From NCBI GenBank assembly GCA_903878265.1, contig CAIRHD010000293.1, positions 1-43,602 of the forward strand: a stretch of 43,602 nucleotides of DNA. The letters are read 5' to 3'. Position numbers and translations under genes: made by a program. Each line of letters begins with the position of its first letter. The stretch's first letter is position 1. Source of the stretch: an uncultured Bacteroidales bacterium (GTDB lineage: Bacteria; Bacteroidota; Bacteroidia; Bacteroidales; UBA4417). The notes below the pieces were generated by a model, which worked only from the letters and a program-made list of their open reading frames with translations, did no database searches and was not told the origin of the DNA. This document shows, piece by piece, positions 21,260 through 31,705 of the stretch.

Positions 21260-21445
21260 GTCATTATAAAACTTGCATATATAAATTGGCAATTAAAGGC
21301 GATTAGTTCTATTGTGAATTGTTCATAATAATAAATTTCTGTTTTTAAAGTAATCGCTGACTTTCACTTTCACACCTAGCTCTTCATTAAGTTCACGTGT
21401 AGGTGAGTCATTATGTCGTTCTCCTTTTTCTTTTTCTATTTACTT
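21260..21445 (-). pseudogene. Frameshifted remnant of a MutT/NudG-like NUDIX hydrolase
   Basis: The minus strand reads IEKEKGERHNDSPTRELNEELGVKVKVSDYF (NUDIX box, REUxEExGU). After a frameshift it reads TEIYYYEQFTIELIAFNCQFIYASFIMT. No intact start is present. Confidence 0.7.
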
Positions 21446-21476: not shown

Positions 21477-22100
21477 TTATTTTTCCCTTTTAAGATATTT
21501 TTGGATTACTTCATATTCATAATCTTCATAAAACAGTGGATTCTTAGTGCCAGTTGTATTAGCATATTTGGCGCCCTCTTTTTTGGTGTAATCTTCAATT
21601 ACTTCATTTTCCATGCGATGAAAACTAATTTGACCGATTCGAATGCCAGGAAACAATGGAAGAGGTAATTTACCCATGTTATGCAATTCATAAGTCAAAC
21701 TTCCCTCAAAACCTGGGTCAATAAATCCAGCTGTTGAATGTACTTGTAATCCTGTCCGTCCCCAAGTACTTCGTCCCTCTAATCTTCCAGTTATACCCTT
21801 TGATAATTTTATATATTCTAGTGTAGAAGCAAGTACAAAATCATCTGGATGTAATATGAAAGGTTGCATTGGCTGAACATGAACCACTTCAGAATAATTT
21901 GCAACCTGTTCTTGAAACTCCTCTTTGGTAAGCGAAAGATCAAAATGAGATTGTTTGGCAGTTTTAATATATCTAAATTCTGTTCCGAGCCTTACATCAA
22001 CTGAAGAACTGCCTATTTGTTTCTTAACCCTCATTAATGGAGTAATAATTATCGTCCCTTTTAATAATTCACGAACTATGTCTCTGTCTGAAAGCACCAT
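21477..22100 (-). CDS. dcd: dCTP deaminase (trimeric dUTPase-like fold)
   Basis: LSDRDI, QIGSSSVDVRLG, FVLASTLEYI, GRLEGRSTWGRTGL, STAGFIDPGFEGSLTYEL, PGIRIGQISF and the GAKY tail. Confidence 0.93.
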   Translation of the reverse strand: MVLSDRDIVRELLKGTIIITPLMRVKKQIGSSSVDVRLGTEFRYIKTAKQSHFDLSLTKEEFQEQVANYSEVVHVQPMQPFILHPDDFVLASTLEYIKLSKGITGRLEGRSTWGRTGLQVHSTAGFIDPGFEGSLTYELHNMGKLPLPLFPGIRIGQISFHRMENEVIEDYTKKEGAKYANTTGTKNPLFYEDYEYEVIQKYLKREK

Positions 22101-22104
22101 ATAG

Positions 22105-23523
22105 TTATCCTTCCATTATTTTAAAAATTTCTGATGACTCAATTGACTTTAATAAAATGTTGTCGCTTTTCTCTAAGATATTTCCAAATATTTTCATCTT
22201 TTCAATAAAAGAATACTCACCATTATCAAAAAATAATTCAATCGATATTGGTAAAATATTTTCAATTTTATTAATCCAACCTGTATTAATTATTTCCCAA
22301 AGCTTGGTTCGTGTTTCTTGTAAAGCTTCTTTTGCTTCATTTAGCTCTTTCAATTCAATTTTTGATGTTGGTATGTCAAGATATTTATTTTTAATAAGTT
22401 CAAGCTTTTCAATGTCATTATATGAAGCAATAGGAATCCCAACAGAAAGGCGTTTCTTTAAAGAGTTTATTCGTTTAAAGTCTTCTATTGAAAGAGTGAA
22501 ACTCAAATTAATTAATTCATCTACTTCTTCACTTATCACATCAAGCAATAATGTCATATCAATTGAGGGAGAAGCTTGAGAAGTATTGGGATTGAGAAAT
22601 TTACGACTTGTTTCATTATAATTCTCTAGCATAAAATAATAGAAGGAACTCAAATCTGAATTGCCAAGATAAGATGTTGTTAATGGGATTATTATTTTTT
22701 TTGATTCTAAATACTCTTGAATTATATTAATTCTTAAAACATTTGAAGGATGAGTCTCACTGCTTCTTTCGTTCCCTTCAATTCCAGAAAGTAAAAGAAC
22801 AAAAGTAGCAAAAGAAGCAAGATAGGCAGGCCCTAATATTTTAGTAGCTATTAAGTCGCAATAAATCTCTTCAATCCAATTCTCTATTAGCATTCTGTCT
22901 CTCCCAGTAATTTCATCCGGAATTAACTTTGGGTTAGAAAGTAATTTTTCAATTCCTTTTAAATCAGTATGGCCACATTCATGTGCAAGTATTGTCCAGT
23001 TCAAGGGGTTGTCATAATCAATTTTTGGCAGGAACACGGTTGGATTTTCTTCCAAAAACTCTGATGAAATATTTTTATTATTTAAAATATCTGAGAATAA
23101 CCAAGCTAAATTGCTTTCAAAAAACATATAATCATTTGTGAGAACAATATTTATTTTTTCGTTTTTTCTGTCCGCAGGAAAAAAATCAACAACCTCTTTA
23201 ATGAAAATATGTGTTTCTGGTCGGACCCATTCACCATAAATTAATTGTAGCTGTTCATGTAATTTGATAATTGTAAAAAAAGCATTGGATATTCTTCTTG
23301 ATACTGTTGCTTTTTCAAAAGGATTTAATTCACCTGAGATTTTAAGATATCCTATTAAATTTTCAAGATTAAGTTGAGTTGAGTCCAACGCTTTGCAGAA
23401 TAAGCTAACAACCTCTTTCCCTTCGGTTTTAGAAGACGAATAATGAGAAAATAAATATCTCTTCATTCTTGAAATTTTTTCCAAGACTTCAATACAAAGA
23501 ATTTTTTCAATTTGATTTTCCAT
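22105..23523 (-). CDS. Uncharacterised mostly helical protein with a zincin-like HEXXH...E motif
   Basis: WTILAHECGH, then WIEEIYCDLIATKILGPAY about 30 aa later, and a later THPS..R motif. Confidence 0.75.
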   Translation of the reverse strand: MENQIEKILCIEVLEKISRMKRYLFSHYSSSKTEGKEVVSLFCKALDSTQLNLENLIGYLKISGELNPFEKATVSRRISNAFFTIIKLHEQLQLIYGEWVRPETHIFIKEVVDFFPADRKNEKINIVLTNDYMFFESNLAWLFSDILNNKNISSEFLEENPTVFLPKIDYDNPLNWTILAHECGHTDLKGIEKLLSNPKLIPDEITGRDRMLIENWIEEIYCDLIATKILGPAYLASFATFVLLLSGIEGNERSSETHPSNVLRINIIQEYLESKKIIIPLTTSYLGNSDLSSFYYFMLENYNETSRKFLNPNTSQASPSIDMTLLLDVISEEVDELINLSFTLSIEDFKRINSLKKRLSVGIPIASYNDIEKLELIKNKYLDIPTSKIELKELNEAKEALQETRTKLWEIINTGWINKIENILPISIELFFDNGEYSFIEKMKIFGNILEKSDNILLKSIESSEIFKIMEG

Positions 23524-23955
23524 TTATAATGCAATACTTTTATATTGTTTAGGTTTTAGAATCGAAATTTCTTCTTTCCAAATAGGGACTGAAATTTGTA
23601 AAAGCAACTCCTGTATTTTCTCTATATCGTTTTTGTCAGAAGCAGCGGGGATTTGCATATACTTTTTAATGCTCTCTTTAGCTTTCTCTAATTCGTCCTT
23701 GTGCTCCCCTACTTGGAGTTTTCCGGAGTAAAGATACTGTCTGTCGTGAAAAGGGTTGATTCCTAATTTTTCTTCAATTTCTTCTTTTTCTTTTGAATTT
23801 TCTGAAACTGAAATAATAAGTTCAATTATTTCCACACCTTTTTTTAGCTTATCAATGGAAGCCGTGATACCATTTTTAATTAAGGTTAATTCCATAATTA
23901 ATGCATCAATTTCAGCTACAACATTGAGTTTATTGGCTATTTTTCTTATTCTCAT
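23524..23955 (-). CDS. Hypothetical alpha-helical protein (143 aa)
   Basis: Gaps to both neighbours are 0-1 bp. The protein is Glu/Lys/Ile-rich with amphipathic patterning. Confidence 0.8.
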   Translation of the reverse strand: MRIRKIANKLNVVAEIDALIMELTLIKNGITASIDKLKKGVEIIELIISVSENSKEKEEIEEKLGINPFHDRQYLYSGKLQVGEHKDELEKAKESIKKYMQIPAASDKNDIEKIQELLLQISVPIWKEEISILKPKQYKSIAL

Positions 23956-23956
23956 C

Positions 23957-24577
23957 TCAATTAGATTTTAAGATTTCATACACGGAACAATAATTATCAC
24001 TGCCATTTTTCGGATTAATAATAAATCCCTTTTTATTGAGAGAACTTAGAGATTCAATTATTTTGTTTGGTTGAAATTCCTCAATTGCATCTATAATATC
24101 CCTTTCAGTTACGGAGTGTGATTCATTGATAAATTTTAGAATTGATTTATCAATAGAATTTAAATTGCCGATAAATTCTATATTCTCCATACCACCAGTT
24201 TCAATCATTGTTGATAAGCCTGTACCTAAGAATATTTTTTCTGTTTCCTCAATGGTTGTATTCCTTGGTAAAGTTCTATCAACATGTTTTAGAATCCCTC
24301 TATAAAAACATCTTTTGTGAATTAGTTTCATCTTGAAAATAGTAGGCTTATTATTTTCTTGAATTGCGTGTATAATCGGGCCAAAAGCATACTGACAAAA
24401 AACATAGTCGAGTGGATTTGCTTTTTGAAAATCAATAAGTAATAATGAACTAGGTGTTAAATTTGTAATTATACCAATAAGTAGTTTATAAACCTCTTCT
24501 CCTTTATAGCGACCGCCTGTATAAGAAGCCTTGATAATATCCTCGACAATATCTATTGAAATAATATTTTCTTTCAT
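23957..24577 (-). CDS. STAS-like (DUF4325-like) domain fused to a C-terminal winged HTH
   Basis: GRYKGEEVY...LLIDFQKANPLDYVFCQYAFG is STAS-like. LNSIDKSILKFI..SVTERDI...IIESLSSLNKKGFII follows the wHTH pattern. Confidence 0.65.
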   Translation of the reverse strand: MKENIISIDIVEDIIKASYTGGRYKGEEVYKLLIGIITNLTPSSLLLIDFQKANPLDYVFCQYAFGPIIHAIQENNKPTIFKMKLIHKRCFYRGILKHVDRTLPRNTTIEETEKIFLGTGLSTMIETGGMENIEFIGNLNSIDKSILKFINESHSVTERDIIDAIEEFQPNKIIESLSSLNKKGFIINPKNGSDNYCSVYEILKSN

Positions 24578-24592
24578 GTCTATGTGTTCAAA

Positions 24593-25516
24593 TTAAACAG
24601 GTATGAAAAAACTTATTTGAGCACCCGGAAAACTAGATACTTTGGTTTTCTTTCTGGATGATAAAGAAATTAATTGCATCTCACAATCACCACTTCTAAT
24701 TTTTATATTGCCATTTCTACTGAAGACGAATTCCTCCACTATTATTAAGCCATACCCATCATTATCATCGTTTGACATGCTTGTGTTTCCATCAACTAAA
24801 GCCCATTCGATTGATTCAGCTTCTGTATCAAACTTTTTTATACTAGCTTTAAAACCAACACCAATGTCATAGTAACAAACAGTTGTGCCATAATTTGGTC
24901 TTGCGTGAATTGATGCGATACCCCATGAATTGCTATGATCGAAAATGTTTTTAAACAGTTCAATGTTTGATTGACGGAATAGATAATAATCATCCCCGCT
25001 AAAATTATAAAATGGTGATGTTTGAAGAATATCAAAAACATCAATAGCGTGGTTAGCAAATTCTCCAACCATATTTTCAAAGTCAGCACCACTGGTCGTG
25101 TTCATTTTCTTAGGAATAGTTTCAATAGGCAAAACAACAGACTTTGAGTCAAATTTATTTGACTTTGCTTTTTGTCTCATTCTTCTTTCATTTTCAATAT
25201 GCACAATGTCCTGACCTTCTATAACTCCGACCCTATTACTCATTTGCCCGAAAAACCCAAGAGTTATTAAATAACTAAGAACGCTATCATCTGGATAAAT
25301 ATACCCAAAATTTGCAGTTGAATTTTTCCTTTTTACCGCAGCGCAAAAACAAATAATTGATAATGCTCCTTCAATATCAATGTATTTCACTTTTGAAAAG
25401 TCAAGAAACACATTATTGAATATGCTTCTATTATTTCTATATGATGCGCTTGTGGATTCGATTAAAAAATCCAAAACACTTGAAGTCACTTTCTCTGGTA
25501 TGTGAATGACAGTCAT
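24593..25516 (-). CDS. STAS-like domain fused to a GHKL (HATPase_c) ATPase/kinase domain
   Basis: FLDFSKVKYIDIEG (STAS-like), IELFKNIFDHS (N box), YDIGVGF (G1), DGYGL (G2) and FPGAQI. Start set at ATG 25516, downstream of a TAAATTTG -7 element (25556-25563, minus strand). Confidence 0.8.
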   Translation of the reverse strand: MTVIHIPEKVTSSVLDFLIESTSASYRNNRSIFNNVFLDFSKVKYIDIEGALSIICFCAAVKRKNSTANFGYIYPDDSVLSYLITLGFFGQMSNRVGVIEGQDIVHIENERRMRQKAKSNKFDSKSVVLPIETIPKKMNTTSGADFENMVGEFANHAIDVFDILQTSPFYNFSGDDYYLFRQSNIELFKNIFDHSNSWGIASIHARPNYGTTVCYYDIGVGFKASIKKFDTEAESIEWALVDGNTSMSNDDNDGYGLIIVEEFVFSRNGNIKIRSGDCEMQLISLSSRKKTKVSSFPGAQISFFIPV

Positions 25517-25887
25517 TTTATCAATAAAACATGAATCACATTTAGCATAAAAATACAAATTTAATACCTTTTTGTCTGTTTTTAAGACATCACACTCTTT
25601 TTTTTGATATAGAGTCGTAAAAACCAAAAATGGTTCCCAAAAAACATTTCATTGAATTGTCAGACTTTTTCCGGAAGTATTACTTTAACAGAATTTGAAT
25701 TCTTAGAATATGTATTTAAAGGAATTTTCTGTTTTATCATGTAAATGGCCTAATGTTATCAGTCTGAAATAAGCTATTTCATGTGAAACATCATATTTTT
25801 CAAATATTTCGTCAAAAACATTACAACCAAGACCCATTTAATTTGTAGACTATCACGCCAAAAGTAAACTATAATGTTGGTAGATTG

Positions 25888-26085
25888 TTATTTTTTCCCT
25901 GATCCACCACAAACTCCACAAACCCTTTCACCTGTACCATGGCACCCAGCACAACTAACAATCCTTTTTTCTTTCTTACCAAATCCTTCATTAAATTGTT
26001 CGGATTTACCAGCGCCTGAGCAAGCTGGGCAGGGAATTCTTCCTGTTGCAGAACATCTTGAGCATGGTTGTTTTTCATTGTTCAT
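25888..26085 (-). CDS. Small stand-alone DnaJ-type zinc-finger protein
   Basis: Four CxxCx(G/A)xG repeats (CSRCSATG, CPACSGAG, CAGCHGTG, CGVCGGSG). ATGA overlap with the upstream gene. Confidence 0.8.
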   Translation of the reverse strand: MNNEKQPCSRCSATGRIPCPACSGAGKSEQFNEGFGKKEKRIVSCAGCHGTGERVCGVCGGSGKK

Positions 26086-26903
26086 TTAACCCTCCTTTTT
26101 GAAAATTTAACATTATTCTTATTTAAAATATTATCTAATTGTTGTTTCAGGATGGTTGATCCTCTGAGATCAGCATTTGATAAATCACAACCTTCGAAAT
26201 TAGCTGTTGTTAAATCCATATGTCTTAATTTGGCCTTTAAAAAAATAGAGTAAGAGAAATCTGCATTCTTTACCAAAGTTTTCGAAAGATTTGCGCCTGT
26301 AAAATCGCAGGCAATCATATGAACACCATTCAAATTGGCATTCTGAATAGATGAATTGTTGAAGTATGCTCCTCTGATTTCTGATTCACCTAATTTAATT
26401 TCATCTATCAAAATATTTTTGAGGTTGGAACCGACTAATGATAATTTAGGGGGATTCTTTTCAATCAAATTTGCCTCATAAAGAAATTGGAGAACCTGAC
26501 CCTTTCTTTCCCCATCTAAGTTGCTCAAAGCTATATTTATTCTTGCTCTGGAAATGGCAATCGTTTGTGGAGTTGGACCATTATGTAAATTATTTGTGAT
26601 AATTAGTTCGGTCATTACTTTTAGGAAAGATTCTAGAGTTTCATTCTTTGACCTCTCATCCTCCGATTTCATTGTTTTTGCTTTCTCAATTTGGCCCCAA
26701 AGCCATCCAATTAATGCTAGAGCAATAGGAATTATCATTAAATCTAACCAGTCCCACAAAGTTTTAGCTGCTTCTTTTGCATCATCCTTTTCACTTTCAC
26801 CGAAGCCTGTCCAAGATGGAGGGTTGGTTTGAATTGCTAAAAAAAAGATTAATCCAATTAGACTTACAATTATAACAATTAATAGTATACGAATGAATTT
26901 CAT
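26082..26903 (-). CDS. Membrane-anchored pentapeptide-repeat protein
   Basis: Two N-terminal TM segments (including KTLWDWLDLMIIPIALALIGWLW), RKGQVLQFLYEA, and C-terminal A(N/D)Lxx repeats. Confidence 0.88.
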   Translation of the reverse strand: MKFIRILLIVIIVSLIGLIFFLAIQTNPPSWTGFGESEKDDAKEAAKTLWDWLDLMIIPIALALIGWLWGQIEKAKTMKSEDERSKNETLESFLKVMTELIITNNLHNGPTPQTIAISRARINIALSNLDGERKGQVLQFLYEANLIEKNPPKLSLVGSNLKNILIDEIKLGESEIRGAYFNNSSIQNANLNGVHMIACDFTGANLSKTLVKNADFSYSIFLKAKLRHMDLTTANFEGCDLSNADLRGSTILKQQLDNILNKNNVKFSKRRVK

Positions 26904-27218: not shown

Positions 27219-27475
27219 ACCCCACAAAAAAATCCCTACCACACCGTGGCAGGGATTTTTTATTTCTATAATTCTCGCTTAACCACATCTTCACATCCTC
27301 AAATCTTCACATCCCCAAATCTTCAAATCTTCAAATCCTCAAATCTTCACATCCCCAAATCTTCACATCCCCAAATCTTCAAATCCTCAAATCTTCAAAT
27401 CTTCACATCCCCAAATCCCCACATTTTCAAATAATCGTATTTTCAAATTAGCACATTATCGCATTAACTCATTAA
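27219..27475. repeat. Direct repeat copy 1: terminator hairpin, octamer tract (CAAATCTT/CACATCCC) and TTCAAATTAGCACATTATCGCAT tail
   Basis: Aligns with 28306-28478. The hairpin is aaaaaaatccctac...gcagggatttttt. Confidence 0.8.
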
Positions 27476-27787
27476 TATCAATTTTTAATTTTGGCAAATG
27501 CCTTACAATTGTGCCCCAAATAATTTCATCGTCAATCTTATCATACCCGTGGATTACACGGTTGCGCATACTGATAATCTGTTTTTTACTGGCTATCACA
27601 ATATTGGGATCAAGTTTATCAATCCGGTTCATGGCTTCCCCAATAATTTCAGATTCCGCTCAATAGCCCGCCGTAGCATTTTATCCGCTTTTTAAATGTT
27701 GAAATCACGTTTATCCCCCAAGTACATTTCAATGGTTTCAATAGATTCGTTAATATCGAACAAATATTTTTTGATCTCAATTTCCAT
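27456..27787 (-). pseudogene. HepT/DUF86-type HEPN RNase toxin, inactivated
   Basis: MEIEIKKYLFDINESIETI... has an in-frame TAA at 27692-27694. It continues KADKMLRRAIERNL, then after a 1-nt frameshift IIGEAMNRI...SMRNRVIHGYDKIDDEIIW (Rx4HxY HEPN motif). Confidence 0.88.
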
Positions 27788-28082
27788 AAAGCAAGGTTTT
27801 ATTTTTGTTGATCGATTCGATAAAATAAGGGTTCGAGAGTGATTTGTCAGTTACCAGATCAACAGGTCGTTTTAGTAGTCCTTCAAACTTTTCGGCCAAT
27901 TCAAAGTAAGTATCAGCATAGCTGCCATAGTCAAGCTGTGATATTGAAATCAACAGATCAATGTCGCTATCTTCGTTAAATTCAGGGGTACATACGGAAC
28001 CAAAAGCAAACAACGACTTCACTTCATACTGTTCACACAATTCCTTTATTTGATTAAGGTTTTCAGTTAAAATGGGGTTCAT
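27777..28082 (-). CDS. Minimal nucleotidyltransferase (MNT/MntA-type) antitoxin
   Basis: LFAFGSV...SDIDLLI...RPVDLV, 101 aa from ATG 28082. It overlaps the HEPN gene start. Confidence 0.92.
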   Translation of the reverse strand: MNPILTENLNQIKELCEQYEVKSLFAFGSVCTPEFNEDSDIDLLISISQLDYGSYADTYFELAEKFEGLLKRPVDLVTDKSLSNPYFIESINKNKTLLYGN

Positions 28083-28305
28083 GGTTTTGTAATTAGCTGT
28101 AATCGAATATAATAAGCAAAGATACTTATTTCTGGCAAACAAAAGTCTATAAATATGATTAAAAAATCTATTCTGCGGCCACCGCACAAATCCCCGTTAC
28201 CGTGCGAATCCTTTCGCGTGGTTTCCATAATACAAAGCCCTTCTTACAATTTCACTTTTTTATATGCACTTTGCCAATCCCAACCACTTACCCGTTTTAC
28301 CACCA

Positions 28306-28478
28306 ACCCCACAAAAAAAATCCCTGCCAAACCGTAGCTGGGATTTTTTTTATTCCCATAATACTTGCTTAATCACATCCCCAAATCTTCACATCCCCAA
28401 ATCCCCACATTTTTAAAATTATCGTATTTTCAAATTATCGTATTTTCAAATTAGCACATTATCGCATCAACCCATTAA
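28306..28478. repeat. Direct repeat copy 2 (hairpin, shorter octamer tract and tail)
   Basis: accccacaaaaaaaatccctgcc...gggattttttt...cacatccccaaatcttcacatcccc...ttcaaattagcacattatcgcatcaacccattaa. Confidence 0.8.
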
Positions 28479-31429: not shown

Positions 31430-31705
31430 AGGTTAAAGGGTTCAATGCTTTGCGTTTAAGGGTTCAATGCTTCGCGTTCAATGTTCAAAATGTTGGCCAC
31501 TGAGCTTGACGAAGTGCGCGTTCTATTGTTCAATTGTTCGCTTGTTCTATTGTTCTATTGCTAAAATGTTCAATTGTTTGCTTGTTCAATTATTACAACT
31601 ACCGCTTCAAATCCCTAAATCCCCAAATCCTCAAATCCCACATTTTCAAATTTTTAAATTCCCACATCCTTCAAATTTTCAAATCATCTCATTTTCAAAT
31701 TCAAA
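31430..31705. repeat. Mixed heptamer/octamer tandem tracts between the response regulator and the kinase
   Basis: GGTTCAA units, TTCTATTG/TTCAATTG units and CAAATCCC/CAAATTTT units. It includes TGAGCTTGACGAA (31501), which recurs at 43162. Confidence 0.75.

Follow-up and report, generated by a model that had tools for sequence, protein, structure and literature searches.

Five minus-strand open reading frames (ORFs) lie at positions 21477-25516 of the window analysed here, a stretch of 43,602 nt from an uncultured Bacteroidales bacterium (contig CAIRHD010000293.1), and are read in the order g1-g2-g3-g4-g5 (Table 1). An initial annotation of the same DNA had assigned to them a STAS-GHKL kinase, a STAS protein with a winged helix-turn-helix (wHTH), a helical protein, an HExxH protein and a Dcd-type deaminase, and all five assignments hold. 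We give roughly even chances to the reading that these genes form a horizontally acquired, two-module conflict or stress cassette, in which a damage-triggered phospho-switch would control a zincin-Dcd effector that depletes dCTP.

Table 1. Features of the five-gene operon and of the region upstream of it (positions in the window).
Feature	Position	Strand	Basis or remark
g1, STAS + SpoIIAB/RsbW-like GHKL kinase, 307 aa from ATG	24593..25516	-	ORF list, alignment, model
g2, STAS-like (DUF4325-type) + C-terminal wHTH, 206 aa	23957..24577	-	profile matches
g3, small fast-evolving helical protein, 143 aa	23524..23955	-	ORF position, complex prediction
g4, gluzincin-like protein, 472 aa	22105..23523	-	invariant motifs, model
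g5, Dcd-fold dCTP deaminase, 207 aa	21477..22100	-	PF22769, TIGR02274
TAAATTTG, matches the -7 pattern TAnnTTTG	25556..25563	-	47 nt before g1 ATG
Inverted repeat, 11-nt arms 25578-25588 and 25614-25624, 25-nt spacer	25578..25624		91% complementary; 62-108 nt upstream of g1 ATG

A conserved five-gene operon

The gaps between the genes are 15 (g1/g2), 1 (g2/g3), 0 (g3/g4) and 4 bp (g4/g5), so that the ORF coordinates agree with the tight block described at first. In related loci the packing is closer still, with overlaps of mostly 8 nt at g3/g4 and 4 nt at g2/g3 and a g4-g5 spacing of 3-5 nt; because unrelated genomes show this order and these overlaps again, the packing is not a product of chance. 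The AT-richness claimed for the block is also borne out: GC in 1-kb segments over the operon is 0.29-0.34 (about 30% for the block), as against 0.42-0.49 in the left flank (16-20.5 kb) and about 0.39-0.46 in the right flank (beyond 29.5 kb). The low-GC stretch runs from about 20.5 to 29 kb and is thus wider than the operon itself. No tRNA genes were found in the window.

Upstream of g1 the initial annotation had seen a -7 promoter element. The motif is there (TAAATTTG) and fits TAnnTTTG, which we take to be the Bacteroidota -7 promoter consensus, but the pattern is no commoner in the window than chance predicts (51 matches; shuffled sequence gives 51.9 +/- 6.6), and so the motif is uninformative alone and no evidence in itself. 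The g1 frame is open upstream as far as a TTG at 25627, and the alternative TTG start that gives the 321-aa form of gene callers overlaps the motif. A sigma-70 promoter scan of the window is not meaningful for such organisms, and a terminator was not found after g5.

The same gene order recurs elsewhere, which the initial annotation had left as a point to check. We collected 31 loci of the g4 family from at least five phyla, 26 of them metagenomic and 5 from genomes (Thermodesulfobacteriota, Ignavibacteria, Thermodesulfovibrionales, Cyclobacteriaceae and Rhizobiaceae metagenome-assembled genomes); the set includes at least these duplicates, L036 and L037 of L020 and L043 of L042. Downstream of g4, g5 follows in all 25 loci with room for it, and g1 is present in all 23 loci with room upstream. 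tblastn recovers g2 in 19 of the 23 loci with g1, and the other four hold an ORF of 208-216 aa in its place, two of which were compared with the g2 profile and gave hhalign probabilities of 95.7 and 97.4. Frameshifts interrupt g2 or g4 in L030 and L042/L043.

Within genome collections the cassette is scarce. The g4 profile scores strongly in 2 of 401 Bacteroidota genomes, the present one included, and among 401 genomes of a second phylum it finds the seed genome alone, with none in the 400 further genomes. To the left of the island, a GH31-amylase gene pair is conserved in three relatives, and the cassette is absent beside that pair in all three. The regions downstream of the conserved amylase in these relatives hold none of the window's downstream genes, so the exact borders of the island are not set. 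The cassette is rare, and we infer that it has been acquired horizontally.

The g3-g4-g5 payload

The clearest member of the cassette is g5, which matches PF22769 with 137.8 bits (cut-off 27) and TIGR02274 with 171 bits (cut-off 92.8). Its nearest solved relatives align with it end to end (2qxx, E 4.9e-37; E. coli 1xs1, E 4.5e-34), and GRS111..R115 and E138 of g5 align with 1xs1; we take S111, R115 and E138 to occupy the catalytic Ser, Arg and Glu positions of Dcd. Across 29 aligned copies, fused and plasmid copies included, the catalytic residues of Dcd do not vary, and g5 is the best-conserved protein of the cassette, with 53-94% identity as against 30-83% for g4. It ends in a cassette-specific acidic/aromatic tail (FYEDYEYxxIQK; in the aligned family FY[ED][DE]YEYxxIQK). 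When compared with defence models, g5 fell into no PADLOC family and did not match NF041025, and its NCBIfam matches were confined to dCTP_deam and dut models, in keeping with the earlier placement of g5 outside the zinc-deaminase fold of known defence enzymes.

The initial annotation had also weighed whether g5 might simply be the vertically inherited housekeeping dcd, and had proposed a search for separate housekeeping genes. The assembly (95% complete) contains no second dcd: its only other Dcd-like match is dut, and it encodes a candidate dCMP deaminase of the ComEB type, whose 102.8 bits fall short of the equivalog cut-off. TIGR02274 is matched above its cut-off in 0 of the 24 other genomes of the genus and in 2 of 41 relatives overall, which speaks against vertical inheritance. 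Because relatives of the same genus lack dcd, and because the cassette is missing at the conserved site, g5 is an acquired, accessory copy.

Other Dcd-like genes came to light in these searches. One genome of the same genus (G016) carries tandem, sub-threshold Dcd-like ORFs at C18:31575-32544 (L006), with TIGR02274 scores of 77 and 50 bits and open frames of 189 and 218 aa, and no adjoining g4 relative was found there by tblastn. A tblastn search of g5 against plasmids gave 90 records, many of the listed ones megabase-sized and probably chromosomes filed as plasmids. Two further plasmid copies of dcd, those of Priestia and of Streptomyces pSAM1, have no g4 relative beside them and lie in phage-like surroundings or in those of ordinary nucleotide metabolism.

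The second payload protein, g4, consists of an N-terminal three-helix bundle (residues 1-99), a core and a C-terminal helical domain. The core carries H181-E-C-G-H185, E219xxxD223, GPAYL231-235 and H258-P259; in 23 sequences H181-E182-x-G-H185, E219xxxD223, GPAYL and H258-P259 are invariant. HExxH together with ExxxD is the pattern of thermolysin/neprilysin-type gluzincins (MEROPS clan MA(E)). A DPP III-type enzyme (HExxGH) was considered for g4 and dropped, the motif being HExxH. Database searches gave the protein no name: it has no match in Pfam, PADLOC, NCBIfam or PHROGs, its profile found 0 matches among PDB sequences even at E 10, and Foldseek of its AF2 model (pLDDT 86.7, pTM 0.89) against PDB returned nothing at E<=1e-3. 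The VIA rows range over Z 4-6.8, led by 6row (6.8), ZMPSTE24 (6.7) and PepO (6.6), and are at the top mostly zinc metallopeptidases of M13, M48, M4 and M1, with every peptidase match below Z 8, the tool's caution line. In the Atlas, the neighbours of g4 are unnamed and g4 has no structure model; the nearest named clusters are Peptidase_U49 and M48, at 0.78 only, a value that the tool itself grades as a lead.

The family to which g4 belongs is large. Its close relatives in a set of 5.8 billion clusters number 82 proteins, all of which lack both a Pfam domain and a functional name, and a profile search of 1.84 billion representatives extends the family to 1,752 clusters at E<=1e-3 (136 at E<=1e-30), the clusters being defined at 50% identity. 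The family has no Pfam entry. All four of the long representatives (690-740 aa) consist of a full-length g4 homologue with a C-terminal Dcd domain, and P0265 is a fifth such fusion. The first four retain the invariant residues of both g4 and Dcd. Six distant representatives of normal length had no Pfam match.

Related arrangements are found on plasmids. A Bradyrhizobium conjugative plasmid has the order MerR - 146 aa - 463 aa - dcd, and Rhizobium phaseoli plasmids have 139 aa - 417 aa - dcd (10 records, at least 99% identical over the g4-like protein). The 463-aa and 417-aa proteins match the g4 profile with hhalign probabilities of 96.9 and 92.7, over the HExxH...ExxxD...GPAY...HP core, and keep the HExxH/ExxxD residues; the small proteins encoded upstream of them are not detectably g3-like (hhalign probability 0.3). 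The fusions and the plasmid arrangements together indicate that the conserved core is a small protein, a g4-like protein and Dcd, and that the regulators are exchangeable.

Some of these loci have further content of their own. On R. phaseoli pRetR611c (L056, 12059-24565) a Fic protein precedes the zincin-like and dcd pair, and an S8 serine peptidase, a trypsin-like peptidase and an AAA ATPase follow it; a patatin and an S8/S53 peptidase lie near the Bradyrhizobium locus. Four other loci (L051-L054, in G299, G108, G399 and G411) encode proteins of about 380 aa whose similarity to the g4 profile is confined to ExxxD...GPAY (E 3e-9 to 8e-7); one or two ORFs of 120-150 aa stand before each of them. 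Neither these proteins nor the preceding ORFs have a Pfam match, and the loci may represent a further unnamed zincin-like operon. A sixth gene, absent from the window, overlaps the end of g5 in the branch of the cassette that diverges most (L019:5789-6172, L021:9997-10380, L022:6890-7282, and also L050:498-884 in G060). Its products are 127-130 aa long, with a hydrophobic C-terminal stretch, and are 29-40% identical among three loci.

The invariance of the g4 motifs (HExxH, ExxxD and His-Pro, 23 of 23), which extends to fusions and plasmid relatives, implies that catalysis by g4 is under selection. It would suit a different division of labour, in which g4 is a zinc peptidase and the true effector, cleaving a host or phage protein, and Dcd acts as a nucleotide sensor or signal generator (with dCTP/dTTP, modified dNTPs or dUTP as the trigger). 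Lit, which cleaves EF-Tu, is a precedent for a peptidase effector. A g4-Dcd fusion fits a sensor-effector pair as well as it fits a regulator-effector pair, the nearest named Atlas clusters of g4 are peptidases, and base-modified nucleotides have been described as immune signals (bioRxiv 10.1101/2024.12.20.629578, as far as that source was available). Such a role for g4 nevertheless seems to us improbable: conservation within the cassette is highest in Dcd, whose catalytic residues are all retained, as expected of an enzyme that turns over substrate, and the fold matches of g4 to peptidases are weak.

The third payload protein, g3, has no family at a meaningful E value in Pfam, PADLOC, NCBIfam or PHROGs. 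It is helical and poorly conserved (a single column is invariant across 19 aligned sequences), and tblastn recovers it in only 9 of the 31 loci. Its position is better kept than its sequence: 27 of the 29 loci with room have an ORF of 122-185 aa that ends at the start of g4, and L042 has one by eye. Complex prediction of g4 with g3 gave an ipSAE of 0.75, compared with 0.01 for the best of three controls, with a partner pLDDT of at least 68 and at least 56% of contacts common to the runs; of the solved complexes 58 of 80 reach the mark used, and of the mismatched pairs 2 of 110. In the predicted interface, helices 13-30 and 112-133 of g3 pack on residues 59-87 of g4, distant from the HExxH site. 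The model thus supports, and does not show, binding of g3 to the N-terminal helical bundle of g4.

The g1/g2 switch and proposed control of the operon

At the head of the operon, g1 has a STAS domain (about residues 1-101) and a GHKL protein kinase domain (about 125-307). E186, N190 and H194 of the N-box (ExxxNxxxH), D217xG219xG221 and G254xG256 are invariant in 19 sequences. In its AF2 model (pLDDT 88, pTM 0.90) the kinase domain is closest to SpoIIAB (1th8_A, Z 14.2, root-mean-square deviation 2.3, 126 residues aligned) and RsbW (6m37, Z 11.5), with histidine kinases clearly lower at about Z 9, and residues 1-101 match the STAS protein TM1442 (1vc1, Z 8.9, 92 aligned; all by VIA-align). The protein also matches an unnamed PHROG, phrog_3364 (E 5.9e-15); tblastn against phages and plasmids gave no match.

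The second protein, g2, ends in a wHTH that makes up its C-terminal third (profile against PDB: XylR 4ija, E 4e-5, and several MarR-type wHTH). Its N-terminal domain finds VapS 9z7o (E 0.016-0.04), the sole PDB match of that domain below E 0.1, and its wHTH finds 9z72 ('MarR family transcriptional regulator', 185 aa; E 0.0088); to guess from the entry numbers, 9z71-9z73 may be CapS. Pfam matches among g2 members are TrmB (5 of 16), HTH_27 (4 of 16) and DUF4325 (2 of 16). The nearest Atlas clusters carry DUF4325 with or without HTH_24/MarR_2 at 0.92-0.93, and the Atlas has no structure model for g2.

An accessory operon that opens with a STAS-GHKL kinase and, directly after it, a STAS and wHTH protein has the arrangement of CapK/CapS, the 'controller of associated pathways' (Chambers et al., EMBO J 2026; PMC13373217). 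According to the available part of that paper, single-stranded DNA activates CapK, which phosphorylates Ser54 of CapS, a serine that is absolutely conserved and lies in helix 2 of the STAS domain, whereupon the CapS dimer leaves DNA and the downstream immune operon, which has its own promoter/operator after capS, is de-repressed (PMC13373217). The same source describes VapKSC, in which an HTH-less kinase (HTH, helix-turn-helix) phosphorylates a small STAS antitoxin and frees the PIN toxin VapC, and states that the switch family responds to DNA damage (PMC13373217).

Kinases related to g1 occur well outside the cassette. The g1 profile matches 25 of 401 Bacteroidota genomes, and a g1-like kinase occurs in 23 of 400 other genomes sampled; the g1-profile kinases of the 23 other Bacteroidota genomes are 290-350 aa long (E 1e-12 to 1e-26). 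We inspected 18 non-cassette loci and found an ORF of 98-127 aa after the kinase in 13; six match the g2 profile. Ten ORFs further downstream were tested, of which eight matched PIN (five above the Pfam cut-off), one matched RadC and one had no match. By the layout given in the part of PMC13373217 available to us, these operons appear to be VapKSC-like. Operons of the kinase / small STAS / PIN layout are fairly common in Bacteroidota (L074-L091), and in L091 a RadC-like JAB protein replaces PIN in third place.

These loci helped to place a possible phospho-acceptor. When 13 small STAS proteins of VapKSC-like operons were aligned with 16 g2 N-terminal domains, Tyr58 of g2 (Tyr in 13 of 16, Thr in 3 of 16) fell opposite the conserved Ser/Thr of 12 of the 13 VapS-like proteins, so that a hydroxyl residue occupies this position in all 16 g2 proteins; no invariant Ser or Thr was found in the STAS part of g2. 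Tyr58 is the candidate phospho-acceptor. In the STAS region of g1, F88 is the only nearly invariant aromatic residue, and an equivalent of CapK W68 / VapK F54 was not located in the 19-sequence alignment.

The only intergenic region available for control of the operon is the one upstream of g1, and it contains the inverted repeat listed in Table 1. Repeats of the same geometry precede g1 in 4 of 21 loci (the window, L025, L026 and L027), against a shuffle expectation of 0.68 +/- 0.84. We regard this repeat as a candidate operator for a dimer of the g2 wHTH, and as a lead only.

Put together, these elements suggest the following course of events. By analogy with CapK/CapS, dimers of g2 would sit on an operator next to the sole promoter, upstream of g1, and keep the operon repressed. 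DNA damage, or single-stranded DNA derived from a phage, would activate g1, which would phosphorylate g2, perhaps at Tyr58 (Thr in some relatives), and g2 would then be released from DNA. In the second module, g3 would bind the N-terminal helical bundle of g4, and g4 would work physically with the deaminase, whether by proteolytic activation, as a scaffold or through a second enzymatic step. Conversion of dCTP to dUTP or dUMP by g5 would then starve replicating phage DNA of dCTP.

Surroundings of the cassette were surveyed over 69 flanking ORFs from 10 long, non-duplicate loci, as pooled counts with no background rate. The Pfam matches include Mrr_cat (2), TIR_2 (2), N6_Mtase, HsdM_N, Methylase_S, AIPR, patatin and Roc-COR-LRR, and those in PADLOC a type I methylase and specificity subunit, mREase_IV, DrmC, TmtA, PDC-S02 (2), PDC-S66 (2) and SAVED-TIR (2); one phage integrase and ordinary metabolic and two-component genes are also present.

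Several points weigh against a damage-triggered switch feeding a defensive dCTP deaminase. On the side of the switch, g1 has no N-terminal HTH, the STAS domain starting at residue 1 of the model, and the longest possible upstream extension is 37 residues. The direct sequence links of g2 to CapS and VapS are weak (E 0.009-0.04), the position of the CapS serine is Tyr or Thr in g2, and Tyr as the substrate of a SpoIIAB-type kinase would be unusual. There is no space for a promoter between g2 and g3 (1 bp, and an overlap in most loci), so any transcriptional control must cover the whole operon, regulators included. The geometry of the inverted repeat was picked after inspection of the data, which makes the statistic post hoc, and 2 of 200 shuffles reach four loci. 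The sequencing runs that contain the stretch are four DNA runs of one study, with no RNA run listed. On the side of the payload and its spread, the peptidase matches of g4 all fall under the caution line given above, 59 pattern matches to g4 in IMG/VR viral contigs yielded 0 confirmed, and tblastn of the window's g4 against plasmids gave no match, so that the case for mobility comes from phyletic patchiness and GC. The flanking genes suggest a defence-island setting; they do not prove it, having no background for comparison. Finally, a general role in DNA damage or nucleotide pools may also be compatible with the data.

In its developed form, this last explanation makes the cassette a non-immune, DNA-damage-inducible module that would supply dUMP/dTTP for repair or balance pools in organisms without dcd, such as the host genus. 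Some HExxH proteins, E. coli YgjP among them, hydrolyse UTP, and g4 may accordingly be a nucleotide pyrophosphatase; g5 for its part resembles ordinary Dcd enzymes, dUMP-forming ones included. The switch family is responsive to DNA damage and, according to its authors, some of its cargo may serve general stress responses (PMC13373217, available part). We nonetheless find this the least probable account of the operon, as dut and a ComEB-type dCMP deaminase candidate are encoded in the genome already, the cassette is AT-rich relative to its host, phyletically scattered and very rare, it often lies near restriction, TIR, Mrr and other defence-type genes, and pool balancing would need neither three unknown partner proteins nor a kinase switch.

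The crowding of the genes bears on a further alternative, a post-translational switch of the VapKSC kind, in which g2 (through its STAS-like domain) or g1 silences a ready-made g3-g4-g5 complex, phosphorylation of g2 frees it, and the wHTH is only autoregulatory or has another role. The nearest relatives of g1 are VapKSC-like kinases, in whose operons the STAS protein is the antitoxin (PMC13373217, available part), and five translationally coupled genes with no internal promoter space fit a stoichiometric complex better than a regulator with its cargo. Moreover, among 36 close g1 homologues the g1/g2 of the cassette subfamily were found only with g3-g5. That g2 keeps a well-conserved wHTH, which VapS lacks, tells against such a switch, as do the plasmid payloads with MerR or no evident regulator, which suggest that transcriptional control is the interchangeable part; we judge it rather unlikely, and prefer transcriptional control of a dCTP-depleting payload.

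A more far-reaching version of this proposal would have the g3-g4-g5 trio be an unrecognised, widespread immune effector family (1,752 clusters), a trimeric Dcd of the housekeeping fold, weaponised and gated by a dedicated zinc peptidase, with interchangeable sensors (CapK/CapS-like, MerR) and a SpoIIAB-type kinase that phosphorylates a STAS tyrosine. Here g4 could clip the acidic/aromatic C-terminal tail of g5, or g4 and g5 could catalyse consecutive steps, dUTP serving as a signal. In this breadth the proposal is doubtful.

Depletion of nucleotides is well established as a defence against viruses, in organisms from bacteria to humans (SAMHD1), and to our knowledge the bacterial dCTP deaminase defences described so far have the zinc cytidine-deaminase fold. 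If the proposed mechanism is true, the same dCTP-depletion strategy has evolved independently from the dUTPase-like Dcd fold, the damage-sensing CapK/CapS-VapK switches have a third class of cargo logic, and the large unannotated g4 family gains its first functional handle. Given the g4-Dcd fusions and the predicted g3-g4 complex, a few point mutants would allow a direct test of the system, and the Tyr at the STAS phospho-acceptor position raises a question about the substrate range of SpoIIAB-type kinases.

Neighbouring genes and known systems

Other features of the window lie outside the operon. At 25888-26903, on the minus strand, a two-gene unit with a 4-nt overlap encodes a 273-aa pentapeptide-repeat protein with an N-terminal membrane segment (Pentapeptide, E 1.5e-15; HalA weak, E 1.8e-4) and a 65-aa protein with a CXXCXGXG zinc finger (DnaJ central domain, E 9e-4, below the cut-off). 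Further on, 27777-28187 (minus strand) encodes an MNT-type nucleotidyltransferase (PADLOC PDC-S09, E 1.7e-28; MntA 43.9 bits against a cut-off of 60), and the ORF list holds no HEPN-sized partner ORF (at least 60 aa) beside it. The pentapeptide, zinc-ribbon (65 aa) and MNT genes were considered as members of the cassette and dropped, because they are absent from all 31 related loci. Tandem arrays of related 8/16-nt units (such as CACATCCCCAAATCTT) lie on either side of the MNT gene (27284-27432 and 28373-28453) and appear again 3 kb further on (31520-31701). Downstream of g5, at about 21290-21440 on the minus strand, a stop-interrupted frame with a NUDIX-box-like ...RELNEELG... may be what is left of a NUDIX hydrolase gene at the island's edge.

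The initial annotation recognised no named system in this set of genes, and this has to be revised for the first two: g1 and g2 reproduce the architecture of CapK/CapS, and g1 that of the HTH-less VapK, as far as the available part of PMC13373217 describes them. Furthermore, the nearest Bacteroidota relatives of g1 sit in VapKSC-like operons. Searches of the five proteins against PADLOC, Pfam, NCBIfam and PHROGs named g5 alone. For the zincin-Dcd module we found no description in the literature searched, which did not extend to subscription journals and supplements. The g3-g4-g5 set is not among the cargo of the main text of PMC13373217 (CBASS, Bub, Bil, MBL, Thoeris IV, DUF4747/CarolAnn and YegP), where 'deaminase' and 'dCTP' have 0 occurrences; its supplementary datasets, of 443 capKS and 289 vapKSC loci, may contain such loci.

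With CapK/CapS, the cassette shares a kinase whose fold is nearest SpoIIAB/RsbW and in which the active-site Asn (N190) is conserved. It differs in the missing N-terminal HTH of the kinase, a part that is dispensable in CapK (PMC13373217, available part), as well as in the acceptor residue and the promoter spacing discussed above. With VapKSC, as described there, it shares the HTH-less STAS-GHKL layout of the kinase, the two kinases being detectably homologous. Here the differences are that g2 (206 aa) carries a wHTH and not the short inhibitory tail of VapS, and that a zincin-like protein and Dcd replace the PIN toxin, no PIN domain being found in g3-g5. The comparison draws on sequence and on our g1 model; we know of no solved structure of CapK.

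On the payload side, the zinc-fold anti-phage dCTP deaminases (NF041025, PADLOC dCTPdeaminase) have the same proposed output, the removal of dCTP during infection, and likewise combine a regulatory and a deaminase part, which in the present case are encoded by separate genes or fused as g4-Dcd. Their catalytic fold is unrelated: the dCTP deaminase of Tal et al. and AvcD/DcdV reportedly have the zinc cytidine-deaminase fold, whereas g5 is a dUTPase-like Dcd. Housekeeping Dcd enzymes (TIGR02274; E. coli 1xs1, M. tuberculosis 2qxx) are similar to g5 over its full length (E 1e-34 to 1e-37), but g5 is accessory and horizontally spread, has the extra conserved C-terminal tail, and in all loci seen is coupled to a g4-family protein, as a pair or by fusion. 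The gluzincins and the M48 and U49 peptidases resemble g4 in its HExxH, downstream ExxxD and later invariant His, and g4 departs from them in having no sequence-family membership, in its extra N- and C-terminal helical domains and in its obligatory association with Dcd. Judged by these likenesses, the g1/g2 switch is of the kind published in 2026, and the g3-g4-g5 payload is the new part.

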